From positions 1 to 64,000 of IMG/VR virus record IMGVR_UViG_3300010163_003659: a DNA stretch of 64,000 nt; one strand, written 5' to 3'. Within the stretch, counting starts at the first letter, position 1. The number at the start of each line of letters is the position of its first letter. Origin of the DNA: a virus. Its lineage: Duplodnaviria > Caudoviricetes. Under the pieces are notes generated by a model. It had not been told where the DNA came from, searched no databases, and was given only the letters and a program-made list of their open reading frames with translations. The translations under genes were made by a program, and so were the position numbers. Below are positions 42,552 through 63,360 of this stretch, in pieces.

Positions 42552-42920
42552 GAACTCACGAGCGTTAAGGAAACGGTTCTTCCAGAAGAGAATTCCGGTA
42601 TATAGGAAAAATCCTGTCATATTCGCAAGGGAGGTATTGTTATTTGAGCCGGATGAATGGCAAATGGCGGCATTGATGGACTTGGCAGAGAATCCGAAAG
42701 TTGCGATTAAATCTGGGCAAGGTGTTGGAAAAACAGGTTTAGAAGCTGTGGCACTGCTGTGGTTTTTATGCTGCCACCCATATCCGAGGATTGTAGCGAC
42801 TGCACCAACCAAACAGCAGCTACACGATGTGTTGTGGTCCGAAGTCAGCAAATGGATGAGCAAGTCTCCTTTGCTCTCAGAAATCCTCAAGTGGACTAAG
42901 ACATATATCTACATGGTTGG
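42538..42920 (+). CDS. terL: Terminase large subunit, 5' part (interrupted)
   Basis: PDEWQ, Walker A SGQGVGKT, ATAPTKQQL; terL similarity stops at the att repeat. Confidence 0.9.
42900..42920 (+). repeat. attL of inserted element
   Basis: GACATATATCTACATGGTTGG; 19/21 identical to 63340-63360. Confidence 0.9.
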
Positions 42921-43000
42921 TGCGTCATTATTTAACTTTTCGTATCATCTGATATATGGCGGTATTGTTAAAGGGTGTATTTATATCAAATTATATTTTA

Positions 43001-43059
43001 TGGTGTCAATTAGTTTGTAATATGGTGTCAGAATTGGTGTACAGAAAAAAGTGGTGTCA
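43001..43059 (+). promoter_or_regulatory. Integrase arm-type sites (left)
   Basis: TGGTGTCA at 43001, 43023, 43052 and TGGTGTA at 43035; same motif at 63253 and 63265. Confidence 0.7.
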
Positions 43060-43280
43060 TATTGAAAAAAAGTGCTTGACAAGGGTTTTGATGAAATTTG
43101 TTACTCTGTACTTTTATTTCCATTCATTTTGAAATATGGGGTGTTTTATCTATCACCTGCTATTATGTGTTCTTAAGAGGCTGAAAGAGCGCGATTTGCT
43201 ATAATATTTATATCACTTTACATGGCTTGCCACAGTAAAAGGAAAATTAAAAAGACAAAAAAGAATAGGAGGTTTTTAAA

Positions 43281-43490
43281 ATGGTTGCAAGGGAAAAGGC
43301 TGATACAATGGTAACTTTGTCGGACAAGCGGCTGCTGAGTATAGACGAGTTTGGTATTTATGCCAGCATCGGAATATGTAAGGCAAGAGAAATAGCGGAG
43401 GAAACAGGCTCTTTGCTCAAGGTGGGGAAAAGAGTGCTTGTTGACCGGGTAAAGTTTGACCGGTGGTGTGATGAACACAGTGGAGTATGA
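43281..43490 (+). CDS. Excisionase-like small HTH protein
   Basis: RLLSIDEF..YASIG..KAREIA..G...VGKRVLVDRVKFDRW. Confidence 0.7.
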   Translation: MVAREKADTMVTLSDKRLLSIDEFGIYASIGICKAREIAEETGSLLKVGKRVLVDRVKFDRWCDEHSGV

Positions 43491-43520
43491 TACTTGGAGG
43501 AAAGGGGTAAATAAATCAGC

Positions 43521-43934
43521 ATGGGAAGGAAGAAAAAATATTCTCCTAAACCATTTGAAAGTGCTGGTGGAGCAAACGATACTAGCGCCAACATATATGA
43601 AAGTATGTTGACTTCTGCTGCCTTTCAGGATTTAACCAAGAATCAGAGGCTATTGTACATATACATGAAAGCCCAGTTTTACGGTAAAAGGAAGCCAGAG
43701 AAAGATTTTCCGGATGTGGAACAGCTGCAAGGAGATGAATTGTTTTATTTTAATCTTTCTTTGGCTGAAAAATATGGACTTTATACCCGGGCGAACCATA
43801 TGCAGTTTTATAATGACATTAAGATAATAGAACAGCATGGATTTATAAAGACTGTGAGCAATGGGCGTTCTACAAAATCTCGGACAATTTTTAAATTTGT
43901 AGGTGATTGGAAGCTTTGGAATGATACAAGTTAA
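43521..43934 (+). CDS. Winged-helix protein (replication-initiator-like)
   Basis: SAAFQDL...LYIYMK...IEQHGFIK; immediately followed by palindromic iterons. Confidence 0.55.
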   Translation: MGRKKKYSPKPFESAGGANDTSANIYESMLTSAAFQDLTKNQRLLYIYMKAQFYGKRKPEKDFPDVEQLQGDELFYFNLSLAEKYGLYTRANHMQFYNDIKIIEQHGFIKTVSNGRSTKSRTIFKFVGDWKLWNDTS

Positions 43935-43937
43935 AAT

Positions 43938-44079
43938 CCTAGGTGGATTTTTCCACCTAGGCAGGAGGTAAACTAGGTGGATTTTTCCACCTACCCAGAA
44001 GAAAATGGGAAAAAGGTAGGTGGAAATTTCCACCCAGTGTCTGAATATTTTGATACTTACCTAGGTGGAAATTTCCACC
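43938..44079. repeat. Four palindromic iterons TAGGTGGA(T/A)(T/A)TTTCCACC
   Basis: 43938-43961 (perfect 10-bp arms), 43973, 44017, 44060; AT-rich tract follows. Confidence 0.85.
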
Positions 44080-44200
44080 ACTTTATATAAAGTTTACCAT
44101 ATACTTATAAATTTATTGGAAATTAGAAATGGCTGATATGGGCATGCGGATATTGCTTTCAAACAGGAATAGGGATTTGTTATAGAAAGGAAATGAAATT

Positions 44201-60476: not shown

Positions 60477-60884
60477 ATGGAGGTAAGAATAATGCAGGGT
60501 AACACAATAACGCATACTGATACTGCCTGCCAGGTGGTGGACATCAGTGGTTTTAAAGGATGCAGGAAGGAGATGGTGGAAGACTGGCTGAGAAAGAAAA
60601 TGTCAGAAACGTATGGTGATGATTCAGAATGCATACTGGGCAATCCGCTCCTCAGAATTTCCACGAAGTTTACAGCGCTAAGCCATAGTGCGCAGCATAA
60701 GCTTTATGGTTATGCCGAGAGGGTTATTATGGCCCAGGGGAACGAACTGACACTGAAAGACAAGCTGTGGGATGTTTTGGAAAAGGGAGGAAGGGACGGT
60801 TCATGGGAGACCATAGAAAAATATGCTGATACACTACTGGCAAAGGAAAAGGCATGGAAGCAGGGGAATGGAGGTTTGGTTTAG
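60477..60884 (+). CDS. Hypothetical protein
   Basis: GGAGG RBS, in operon. Confidence 0.55.
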   Translation: MEVRIMQGNTITHTDTACQVVDISGFKGCRKEMVEDWLRKKMSETYGDDSECILGNPLLRISTKFTALSHSAQHKLYGYAERVIMAQGNELTLKDKLWDVLEKGGRDGSWETIEKYADTLLAKEKAWKQGNGGLV

Positions 60885-60885
60885 G

Positions 60886-61209
60886 ATGGAACAGGATGTA
60901 ATTAAGGCAAAGGCGGACAGGGAATGTGAAATTTTAAGAAGAAAGCAGAGGGAAAGTCTTGAATCAGACCTGATTAAGGAAATCTATTACATGGTGAATG
61001 AAGACAGGAATGAAACTGCCGGCGAAATGCAGGCAGACATGAAGCTGGAGGAAGCGCTGGAAGCATTTGAAAATGGCACTCCTGCAGGCAATATCATTGA
61101 CTTGGCAAGTGAGTGCAGTGCGGAGGCAAGGGAAGCAGGTTTCAAGATGGGATTCCGTGTAGCCATGAAACTCTGCATGGAGGGAATGAAAGGGGGTGCT
61201 GTCTTGTGA
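60886..61209 (+). CDS. Hypothetical protein (satellite/PICI-type GFxxGF C-terminus)
   Basis: AREAGFKMGFRVAMKL. Confidence 0.55.
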   Translation: MEQDVIKAKADRECEILRRKQRESLESDLIKEIYYMVNEDRNETAGEMQADMKLEEALEAFENGTPAGNIIDLASECSAEAREAGFKMGFRVAMKLCMEGMKGGAVL

Positions 61210-61275
61210 CAGCCCTTACGGCAGAATGGCTTAAGGAATTGCAGTTGGATTTGGTAAAAATATAGCAGGAGATAT

Positions 61276-61680
61276 GTGCTGATGGAAGACAGGAAAATAT
61301 TCCTTACTGCTGCAGACATAGCCTCTGACCTCTCCATCAGTGAGGAAGAGGCTGTGGAACTTGTCAAAAAGCTGCAGAAGGAGTTGAAGGAATCCGGCAG
61401 GCTGGTTGTCTCAGGCAAAGTACCTGCTGCCTGGTATGAACAACAGAAAGAGGATGGTTTCATGGGAATAGGGCAGCAGACGGAGCGCATACCGTTGACA
61501 GAACGCAGATTATTAGGCATAAAGGAGTTTCGGGTATATGCAGGGGGGATTGGTGATGGGATGGCGAGGAAACTGGTTAAAGAGATAGGCGCCGCAGTTC
61601 ATATTGGGGACCGCCTTCTGGTCGACCGCCTCCGGTTTGATGAATGGTGTTCAGAACAGAACCGTCAGGGGCAGCAGTAG
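61276..61680 (+). CDS. Two-domain excisionase-like protein
   Basis: N-half resembles 14126-14383, C-half resembles 43281-43490. Confidence 0.65.
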   Translation: MLMEDRKIFLTAADIASDLSISEEEAVELVKKLQKELKESGRLVVSGKVPAAWYEQQKEDGFMGIGQQTERIPLTERRLLGIKEFRVYAGGIGDGMARKLVKEIGAAVHIGDRLLVDRLRFDEWCSEQNRQGQQ

Positions 61681-62001
61681 GAAACTGACAGGGCTGTGAC
61701 GCACGTAGAGGCCTTATTTTGGACCGAAAAGAGAAAAGGTGATAATAATACCGTTAATGAAATAAAAAGCCCTGTAGGGGAAATTAGAGGGCATTGGAAG
61801 AAAAGGTGATTATGGGGAAAGCAGAAAACAGAGGCTCCCGCCATGCTGCAACATGGGAGAGCCCATAAGAGCTAAGGCACATGATAAGAAAGACCAAAGC
61901 ATTTGTATTATAACTGAATTTAGAGACGTTCACAATAAAAACTGAATATGGATTGAGGCGGTTCTGCTGCCTCTTTGCGTAACAGAAAGGAGCTGGGGGA
62001 C

Positions 62002-63183
62002 ATGGCAGAGAACAAAAAGAAACAGTTGCCGCCGGGGATTTCACTGCGTAAGGATGGCAGGTACCAGGCGAGATATACATTTAACGGCAAACGCTATTCA
62101 ATTTATGGCAAGGACTTGAAGGAAGTGCAGAAAAAGCTTCGGGATGCCAAGTATGAAATGGATCATGGCATATTCGCCAAGCCGGATAAGGTAACGGTAG
62201 ATTCATGGTTTAAGGTATGGAAAGAGGAATATGCAGCCAACAGCATGAGGGAGAACACCCTCGCCCATGTAGACAGCATGTATAGATACCACATAAAGCC
62301 GGAGATAGGGAACATGAAAATACAGGATGTACGAACCGAACATATCCAGATGCTGCTTAACAAGATGAAAAAGCAGGAATATTCTTCGGATTTTATGAAA
62401 AGAGTCAGAAATGTTGTGAGCCAGATGTTTAAGCAGGCATACAGGAATGACATGATTATGCGGAATCCAGTAGAGAATGCAGTTACCCCATCCGGAAAGA
62501 CAAAAAAGGAGCACAGGGTACTGACGGAACAGGAGCAGGCGTTGTTCCTGGAATATGCAAAGGAAACTGAATATGAGCTGGTTTTCGTGCTCGGATTTTC
62601 TACAGGAATGAGGATAGGCGAGATACAGGCCCTGCAGTGGCAGAACATAGATTTCAAAAATCTGGAAATCAGCATAGAGGGTACACTTGTCAAGGTGGAT
62701 GGAAAGGAGTATGTAAAAGGGCCTACAAAGACAAAGAGCAGCATCCGCACCGTTCCACTGCTCCCTGATGTAGCAAAACAGCTAAAGAAGTACAAAAAAG
62801 AACAGTCGGAATACCGCATGATGTTAGGGGCAGAGTGGCAGCAGGTAAGGGGGCTGGAGGATTTGCTGTTCTGTACTGCAGTGGGCAGGCCGCTTTCAAG
62901 GAGCGTTTTGTACAATGCTATTGACCGGATTATTGAGCTGATTAATCATGATGAGAGGATAAGGGCAAAAGCAGAGGGACGGAAAGCGGCAGTGTTTGAG
63001 CATTTTTCAAGCCACACCATGAGACACACCTTTGCGACAAGGGCTTTAGAGAATGGTATTCCTCCAAAGGTTGTCCAGGAACTTCTGGGGCACAGCACTA
63101 TAAAGACTACAATGGATATATATACTCATGTATTGCCTAAGACAAAGAATGAGGAGATACAGAAAATTGCCAGTCTGTTCTGA
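62002..63183 (+). CDS. int: Tyrosine integrase of the terL-inserted element
   Basis: RKDGRYQAR arm domain, [25 protein letters not shown]. Confidence 0.95.
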
Positions 63184-63339
63184 TGGTTATCTGCTGCCGG
63201 CCGGGAAAAAGTACCAGCCTGGCAGCAGATGGTTTATACCATGTAAGATAATTGGTGTCAATGGTGGTGTAAACCAGTGGCATGAAACGCTTCAAATGAC
63301 TGGCAAAGCAGGCGGTTAGGGCATTTATAGAAAGTATAC

Positions 63340-63360
63340 GACATATCTCTACATGGTCGG
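63340..63360 (+). repeat. attR of inserted element
   Basis: GACATATCTCTACATGGTCGG; arm-like sites TGGTGTCA 63253 and TGGTGTAA 63265 just inside. Confidence 0.9.

Follow-up and report, generated by a model that had tools for sequence, protein, structure and literature searches.

Satellites that live inside the genomes of their helper phages have been described in the Gammaproteobacteria. These helper-embedded phage-inducible chromosomal islands (HE-PICIs; founder, 11capE of E. coli; Tommasini, Mageeney & Williams 2023) reside within prophages, and a survey mapped 491 elements to 14 sites, which lie in nine late genes of the lambda type, among them the large terminase gene terL (A:Terminase_1:245/246) (PMC10111431). 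They possess a single integrase clade, in which the subclades follow the sites and off-target events and the capture of helper genes occur, and their excision, which follows the replication of the composite, was shown by induction experiments (PMC10111431). Here we analyse a 20,440-bp insert within the terL gene of a prophage, in the first 64 kb (64,000 nucleotides; hereafter called the window) of the 95.9-kb virus record IMGVR_UViG_3300010163_003659. This insert is probably a helper-embedded, satellite-like integrative element of the prophage. An earlier note on this DNA held that satellites normally integrate at chromosomal sites, which is contradicted by the HE-PICIs in prophage late genes, terL among them; the concept of a helper-embedded satellite is thus not new, having been published in 2023 for the Gammaproteobacteria (PMC10111431).

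How does this locus compare with the HE-PICIs? As in those elements, the insert lies inside a helper prophage gene and in the same orientation, no replacement sequence accompanies it, and its predicted excision restores the gene. Its integrase clade is likewise tropic for phage genes, with subclades that match the sites, rare off-target insertions, and terL among the targets. In addition, its relatives have captured helper genes, as seen in the P0168-type element, with its PhageMin_Tail protein and the N-domain of a replisome organizer. In contrast, Clostridia are the hosts here, and their helper phages, which are not lambdoid, have contractile tails and Portal_Mu or Phage_portal together with Mu-F head genes. 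A Tn916-type integrase and Tn916/ICEBs1-type excisionases (Xis) are present instead of AlpA, and a DnaD-like initiator is encoded, with no primase and no Bro zone; the four-zone layout of the Gram-negative PICIs is absent. The sigma factor module and the large defence cargo also set the element apart, the terL sites are different ones, between Walker A and Walker B, and one subclade targets a symporter gene, which is not a late gene. Furthermore, excision was shown experimentally for the HE-PICIs, while here it is predicted from assembled sequence. The Tn916-type N-terminal domain, the SAM_3 architecture, and the Firmicutes context make it unlikely that the integrase belongs to the 11capE clade.

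Integrase and Xis genes, a replication initiator, and accessory cargo are common to the element and the Gram-positive PICIs of the Staphylococcus aureus pathogenicity island (SaPI) type, and so are a divergent repressor switch, a lack of structural genes, and a length of 10-20 kb; the packaging of both is presumed to depend on a helper. The attB of the SaPIs, however, is chromosomal, whereas here it is terL, and the primase/Rep, TerS, and capsid-remodelling genes that the SaPIs supply themselves were not found in the element. Like the skin, SPbeta, and heterocyst-type elements, the insert splits a gene whose product is required solely in a terminal programme and which precise excision rebuilds. 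Those elements cut host genes, and their excision serves host differentiation, whereas the target here is a gene of another mobile element. Unlike the skin-type elements, the insert is also mobile, as empty and occupied sites coexist, and many phage backgrounds are used. The Tn916-family integrative and conjugative or mobilizable elements (ICEs and IMEs) share the arm-binding domain of Int (PF02920) and the Xis (PF09035), but no conjugation family was matched here. Variable defence cargo flanked by conserved core modules is also seen in the defence hotspots of P4-type elements and PICIs, but their core genes and mode of integration are unrelated.

A prophage terL gene split by a mobile element

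The helper is a Lachnospiraceae-type gut Clostridia prophage with a contractile tail, measuring ~63.4 kb without the insert, and its terL-C half is followed by portal, Mu-F, protease, capsid, sheath, and tape-measure genes. A sequence scan bore out that terL is split by an element of ~20.4 kb with repeats at both ends, as the earlier note had described. The features of the interruption are as follows.

42538-42917, plus strand: terL-N, 126 aa with Walker A; the open reading frame (ORF) runs into the insert and stops at 43020
42900-42920: attL, GACATATATCTACATGGTTGG; crossover region TCTACATGGT
43001-43059, plus strand: left arm-type integrase sites, three copies of TGGTGTCA plus TGGTGTAC; the same motif is at the left end of L027
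61975-63183, plus strand: tyrosine integrase, intact; Phage_integrase, SAM_3, and Tn916-type N-terminal arm-binding domain (PF02920)
63253-63273, plus strand: right arm-type site, TGGTGTCAATGGTGGTGTAAA, ~94 bp from the core
63340-63360: attR, GACATATCTCTACATGGTCGG
63353-64000, plus strand: terL-C, Walker B and nuclease; continues to contig position 64459, with the portal gene next

The insert is bounded by a 21-bp imperfect repeat, in which 19/21 positions are identical between attL and attR. When the window was scanned with up to three mismatches, these were the sole two matches (0.00 expected). The positions where attL and attR differ confine the crossover to TCTACATGGT, and the shared core proposed in the earlier note is therefore the crossover region. 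The insert brings no replacement sequence, and terL is thereby split between Walker A and Walker B, at the 10-bp core. The ORF from 42538, which overlaps terS, resembles large terminases over its first ~126 residues only.

The length of 20,440 bp is 1 modulo 3, and the deletion of the insert fuses terL-N and terL-C in frame. The rejoined TerL has 494 residues, includes SGQGVGKT, FIVDEA, and CGNP, and aligns over residues 1-493 with the intact 493-residue P0001 from another sample, with 98.8% identity and no gaps; joining at the core thus restores an unbroken terL, as anticipated. No second terL was found on the 95.9-kb contig. At the sequence level, terL is interrupted and rebuilt by precise excision in the manner of the skin-type elements. 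The predicted attP junction is …GTATACGACATATCTCTACATGGT joined to TGGTGCGTCATT…, and that of the restored terL is …ACATATATCTACATGGT joined to CGGCAATGAA….

Inside both ends of the insert, at a distance of ~90-150 bp, are arm-type repeats (TGGTGTCA…GGTGTAAA). TGGTGTCA occurs seven times in the window (1.62 expected), three times at 43001-43059 and once at 63253. The spacing between the arm motif and the core is conserved among the relatives, as TGGTGTCA-N5-6-GGTGTAAA is kept ~94 bp from the core down to an integrase identity of 55%. An assembly artefact was considered and ruled out, since identical junctions recur across many independent assemblies.

Is the same phage found without the insert? 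Three metagenome contigs (L007-L009) have the same phage gene order, encode proteins that are 95-99% identical, and carry an uninterrupted terL. Their empty site, …AAGACATATATTTACATGGTCGGCAATGAA…, is exactly the attB predicted from attL and attR. The same phage exists with and without the insert, and terL is the dedicated attB, in agreement with the earlier note. The same terL site is filled in independent assemblies (L003-6, L010, L025/26, and L114), in which the terL-C ORFs start with differing element-derived residues. Moreover, the protein database contains short TerL matches whose first residues are unrelated and give way to …YLYM(V/I)GNEKRW; therefore, other terL genes are cut at the same codon. 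On the contigs of these genes, an integrase that is 83-90% identical to that of the window lies directly upstream. We also observed that the terL-N side of one locus (L027:3-434) is 92-94% identical to the window TerL, while the identity of its terL-C side (L027:11362-12393) is just 49%, and a different portal type follows. Such elements may be located at the joints where phage modules recombine, or may promote this recombination.

The element was inserted in terL through site-specific recombination by its Tn916-type integrase. We gathered relatives of this integrase from metagenomes, species genomes, and IMG/VR, and scored them by the downstream gene. The clade count takes in the 43 loci with an integrase identity of at least 49% and usable flank, and terL is targeted in 36 of them, at either of two sites located 24 codons apart.

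terL site 1, 9 loci: core TAYATGGT, codons IYMVG
terL site 2, 27 loci: 24 codons downstream of site 1; core CAYGAGGAYAAT, just before Walker B
Na/solute symporter gene, 4 loci: homologue of window 37016-38437, cut near residue 338
Other targets, 3 loci: two resemble off-target events

The earlier note had asked whether the integrase homologues are consistently flanked by a split terL, and this distribution is not that of insertion at unrelated sites. Candidatus Merdisoma sp. JLR.KK006 (GCA_036941035.1) carries one of the site-1 elements (L006, right half in view), whose integrase is 90% identical to that of the window. The integrase tree places each of the three site groups in a subclade of its own; the insertions in L042 and L043 are off-target, and integrases with 44% identity or less are not adjacent to terL. 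No close relative with more than 64% identity was found in IMG/VR, and none with more than 36.5% in the deposited phage genomes; among the relatives from these two sources, there was no virion-derived genome informative on the packaging of the composite. The window integrase is ~28% identical to the integrases of streptococcal satellites. The helper's own symporter gene (37016-38437; NCBIfam sss; phrog_20720) is intact in the window.

Helper origin and terS motifs in the element

Two kinds of helper motif, one from the replication origin and the other from terS, recur in non-coding DNA of the element.

20613-21509, plus strand: helper replisome organizer (DnaD-like); phrog_5968 E=9e-53, phrog_50 E=1e-54
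21018-21076: helper origin iterons, three copies of GGACAAATGTCC, inside the organizer gene
21502-22254: helper DnaC-like loader, following the organizer gene
41721-42551, plus strand: helper terS; phrog_1889 E=1.5e-53; Pfam Terminase_5, Phage_terminase
41881 and 41913: two copies of the palindrome GCAACGTTGC in terS, just after the part encoding the helix-turn-helix (HTH); candidate pac or TerS-binding site
44222-44305: element iteron cluster, ~6 copies of GACATTTGT(C/A)C in ~85 bp of non-coding DNA; candidate helper-driven origin
49560-49900: conserved non-coding block with CGAACGTTCG (49573, 49675), GCAGCGTTGC (49721), and GCAACGTTGC (49839); candidate pac-mimic array

With at most one mismatch, the iteron has eight matches in the window (0.26 expected). 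Seven of them are in the helper origin and the element cluster, and the eighth is nearby in the helper, at 23453. Similar iteron clusters or pairs occur in the elements of L037, L042, and L066, and those of L042 are followed by a AGAGATAGAG-type tract, as in the helper origin. The initiator of the element and the organizer of the helper are unrelated (BLASTP E=0.18). The P0168-type element has no such iterons, and encodes a 144-aa copy of the organizer N-domain, with 70% identity to that of the window helper.

What might the terS palindromes do in the element? The palindrome block sits within a ~1-kb non-coding stretch, and its copy of GCAACGTTGC at 49839 is the only one on the contig outside terS. 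The block is conserved, with 2-4 copies and variants, in the elements of both terL-site subclades examined (at the symporter-site loci, it falls outside the view). In the terS genes of related helpers, the corresponding position holds a tandem pair of palindromes from this family, spelled with other letters: CGAACGCTCG in L198, L200, L201, and L126, and CGAACGTTCG in L123. In L198/L201, the CGAACGCTCG 10-mer occurs twice in the helper terS and twice in the element, and in L126, it occurs twice in the helper terS and once in the element. These element copies are the sole others beyond terS in the 20-kb loci of the L198 type and of L126. The window element has two copies of CGAACGTTCG, which is the palindrome in terS of the L123 type. 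Computationally, the strongest argument for the block as a site recognised by the helper is this co-variation, and the simplest reading of the block is that of a candidate pac mimic. The co-varying terS palindromes also provide a testable pac-site candidate for an uncultured phage group.

Gene content and proposed cycle of the element

The 24 ORFs of the insert were compared with the Pfam, PHROG, PADLOC, and NCBIfam families, and the following genes and sites were assigned.

43281-43490, plus strand: xis1; Tn916-Xis (PF09035) E=3e-5, DUF6462; first gene after attL, co-oriented with terS and terL-N
43521-43934, plus strand: 137-aa ORF with no family match
43938-44079: four palindromes, GGTGGA(W4-5)TCCACC, between the 137-aa ORF and the iterons
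44820-45674, plus strand: full-length sigma-70-family sigma factor; Sigma70_r2 and r4, phrog_351 E=1.5e-43, NCBIfam; conserved in L003 and L195
45680-46501, plus strand: 273-aa protein with C-terminal HTH_23; conserved partner of the sigma gene
46725-47480, plus strand: antirepressor (AntA + KilAC); AntA fragment at 46498-46680
47585-49374, plus strand: RosmerTA-like defence pair; RmrT-like, 47585-48220, E=1.2e-6 (weak), and RmrA, 48217-49374, E=1.4e-104 (PADLOC)
50458-51120, plus strand: TIR-domain protein (Pfam/PADLOC)
51140-53521, plus strand: STAND NTPase with TPR repeats (Pfam/PADLOC)
53696-54907, plus strand: SEC-C-motif protein and a protein with two transmembrane (TM) segments, of the TRADD-N-associated type; pair also in the L030 element
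55258-57720, plus strand: second STAND NTPase-TPR protein
57828-58391, minus strand: Uma2-family endonuclease; PADLOC candidate PDC-S03; conserved in the family
58520-59374, minus strand: DnaD-like replication initiator or helicase loader; phrog_6493 E=3.4e-54
59399-59617, minus strand: HTH_26 Cro/CI-type regulator; presumed element repressor
59638-59719: divergent promoter-like pair, the switch region between the HTH_26 gene (minus) and the HIRAN-to-int operon (plus)
59807-61680, plus strand: rightward operon; HIRAN-domain protein (59807-60241), 135-aa and 128-aa ORFs, and xis2
61276-61680, plus strand: xis2; ICEBs1-Xis-like N-terminus and DUF6462-like C-terminus

The intact tyrosine integrase, the arm-like sites inside both ends, the xis-like genes, and the repressor switch listed in the earlier note were all found, and, as it also stated, none of the 24 ORFs matched a capsid, head, tail, or terminase family. 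No match to the AlpA, primase, or Cpm families was detected among them either. Apart from the HTH domains and the integrases, no similarity was found between the element and helper proteins. The possibility that the 137-aa ORF is a remnant of a replisome organizer was rejected after comparison. The GGTGGA(W4-5)TCCACC palindromes are confined to this place, both on the contig and among all of the loci retrieved. An Rfam scan of 41.5-64 kb returned a single sub-threshold match to a plant miRNA, which is noise.

The comparison with the 9.65-kb element of L003 defines four common blocks: attL-xis1, sigma + HTH_23, Uma2, and xis2-int-attR. Relative to L003, the region of 46.5-57.7 kb in the window is variable cargo, and its Ant and SEC-C + TM modules reappear in elements of the other subclade. 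The xis1 gene is kept at the left end of L003, L027, and L195. A very common relative of the P0168 type (~20 kb) has a gene for a 1189-aa PhageMin_Tail (tape-measure-like) protein (L195:4616-8185) and a truncated replisome-organizer N-domain (L195:2291-2725); therefore, some family members carry phage-derived late and replication genes. On a 262-kb contig (L196:14087-20384), the left half of the P0168 type is followed by a different integrase with RecT, a replisome organizer, and a DnaC-like protein, in place of the usual right half. This arrangement is a nested or rearranged composite.

The timing of excision, the read-through into xis1, the helper-driven replication, and the packaging are steps that we infer, and they would form the following cycle.

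Lysogeny: The HTH_26 repressor would silence the HIRAN-xis2-int operon, while the cargo (the RosmerTA-like pair, TIR + STAND, the second STAND, and Uma2) would protect the cell.

Excision: Upon induction, the composite would replicate. Transcription of terS and terL-N would then read into xis1, as no plus-strand terminator was predicted between terL-N and xis1, and de-repression would supply Int. The element would excise, and terL would be restored.

Replication and packaging: The replication of the circle would be aided by the replisome organizer of the helper, which is expected to recognise the copied iterons. The helper terminase would then package the circle by means of the copied terS-type palindromes. 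In a new cell, the circle would re-insert into the terL of a resident or co-infecting helper.

Alternative explanations and genomic context

The apparent copies of the helper origin iterons and terS palindromes in the element support its reading as a satellite, and this mimicry strengthens what the earlier note had proposed. The note had also held that the element blocks an essential packaging gene until it excises. This part does not extend to the whole clade: a sister subclade cuts a non-essential phage symporter gene (L047, L123, L125, and L126), and therefore the blocking of an essential gene is not universal. Several further points weigh against the satellite. The insert ORFs include no terS, capsid-size, or other known hijacking genes. 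The replication genes vary across the family, and both this DnaD-like gene and a clear iteron array are missing from the L003 element. Another helper protein, such as the ParB-like ones encoded beside terS, could be what binds the palindromes. In four public runs from rat/mouse gut metagenomes, attL +/-10 kb yielded fragmentary contigs of 3-10x coverage, with no attB/attP junction among the listed loose ends; these contigs speak neither for nor against excision. The longest single exact matches between helper and element (17 and 16 nt) were dropped as evidence, since shuffled controls give 15-18 nt; the case for a satellite therefore rests on the repetition of the motifs and their co-variation across helper-element pairs.

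Could the insert instead be a mobile cargo cassette, which travels as part of the composite phage genome, excises from a fraction of the copies to provide enough TerL in trans, and is never packaged alone? Since TerL works in trans, excision from some of the copies would be enough. Every sampled copy, IMG/VR included, is a composite with phage genes on both sides, terS and capsid-remodelling genes were not found in the element, and replication genes are not universal in the family. Nevertheless, we consider the cassette unlikely. The composite measures ~83.8 kb between the 24-bp repeats described below, and the insert adds 32% to the ~63.4-kb helper; for the relatives, which measure 9.65-20 kb, the increase would be roughly 15-30%, provided that their helpers have a similar size. 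A genome enlarged by 15-32% exceeds what headful or cos capsids usually tolerate. The packaging of the whole composite therefore seems unlikely, which favours separate packaging. The same capsid-capacity point has been raised for the HE-PICIs (PMC10111431). A cassette would also leave the co-varying arrays of terS-type palindromes and the copied origin iterons unexplained.

The integrases of L010, L054, and L058 are broken or frameshifted, and therefore some insertions are dead ends. The cargo consists mostly of defence genes, and the window insert might likewise disable the prophage through the split terL and be kept for host defence and prophage lock-in, with excision and transfer being irrelevant. 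Such a host-serving insertion is quite improbable here, as the integrase, both xis genes, and the att and arm sites are intact in the window. In addition, the terL halves, including terL-C, are intact at all terL loci with enough flank, and near-identical phages show both empty and occupied sites. The site-specific tropism of the clade across diverged phages implies repeated successful transfer. The least probable explanation, to which we give very little weight, is a Tn916/ICE-type mobilizable element that moves by conjugation and uses the phage genes merely as landing sites. The Tn916-type arm-binding domain of the integrase and the similarity of the Xis genes to the Tn916 and ICEBs1 excisionases would suit it, and we take the sigma factor and HTH regulator to recall the Tn916 regulatory region. 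However, none of the insert ORFs matched a relaxase, coupling protein, or other conjugation family, in a family scan that a bare origin of transfer (oriT) could escape. The exclusive tropism for the genes of one phage group, together with the copies of helper ori and terS motifs, points to a phage-linked cycle.

Full-text literature searches retrieved the HE-PICIs and no description of a Firmicutes terL-embedded family, although their coverage is incomplete and absence is no proof. The satellite lineage considered here is Gram-positive and gut-wide, and apparently independent of the HE-PICIs. Its abundance in gut metagenomes is illustrated by one related integrase, which is indexed in 874 collection blocks, and by the xis1 gene accompanying it, indexed in 1,446. 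We lean towards a broader view, in which these elements are a widespread, undescribed gut-Clostridia family of obligately phage-embedded satellites that arose from a Tn916-type integrase lineage, independently of the HE-PICIs. They would carry several terS-type palindromes for packaging by several helper types, as well as copies of the helper iterons or of the organizer DNA-binding domain, and would serve as the mobile defence island of their helpers. Should it be confirmed, this family of helper-embedded satellites would apparently be the first described for Gram-positive bacteria, as judged by the literature searches, and would represent a second, probably independent origin of living inside the packaging gene of a helper. 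The element would move defence systems (RosmerTA-like, TIR + STAND, and Uma2) between the phages of Lachnospiraceae-type hosts. Furthermore, prophages of this kind will be wrongly called defective or split by prophage-finding programs and by phage classification that relies on terL.

The surrounding contig offers several further observations. An exact 24-bp direct repeat, ATCGAGTTCGAATAGCGGACATTT, occurs at window 7263-7286 and contig 91061-91084 (L002:11061-11084), 83.8 kb apart. The two copies are probably the attachment sites of the helper prophage, and no tRNA was detected at them. The helper integrase lies inside this interval:

8755-9843, minus strand: helper integrase

A second integrase is located at contig 94342-95442 (L002:14342-15442, minus strand), where the DNA is paralogous to the helper integrase region (identities of 13-41 nt at a constant offset of 85,599), a sign that a further element may be integrated in tandem at this att site. 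Positions 1-7260 of the window, to the left of where the prophage probably ends, have a low GC content (29-37%) and contain a primase/helicase-like ORF (1-1098), cut by the contig start, and phage-family ORFs; this region may be another integrated element. Finally, between the symporter gene and terS, the helper encodes two PAPS-reductase-like and two ParB-like proteins (38421-41618), and these genes are conserved in all of the related helpers seen (L007, L198, and L200).

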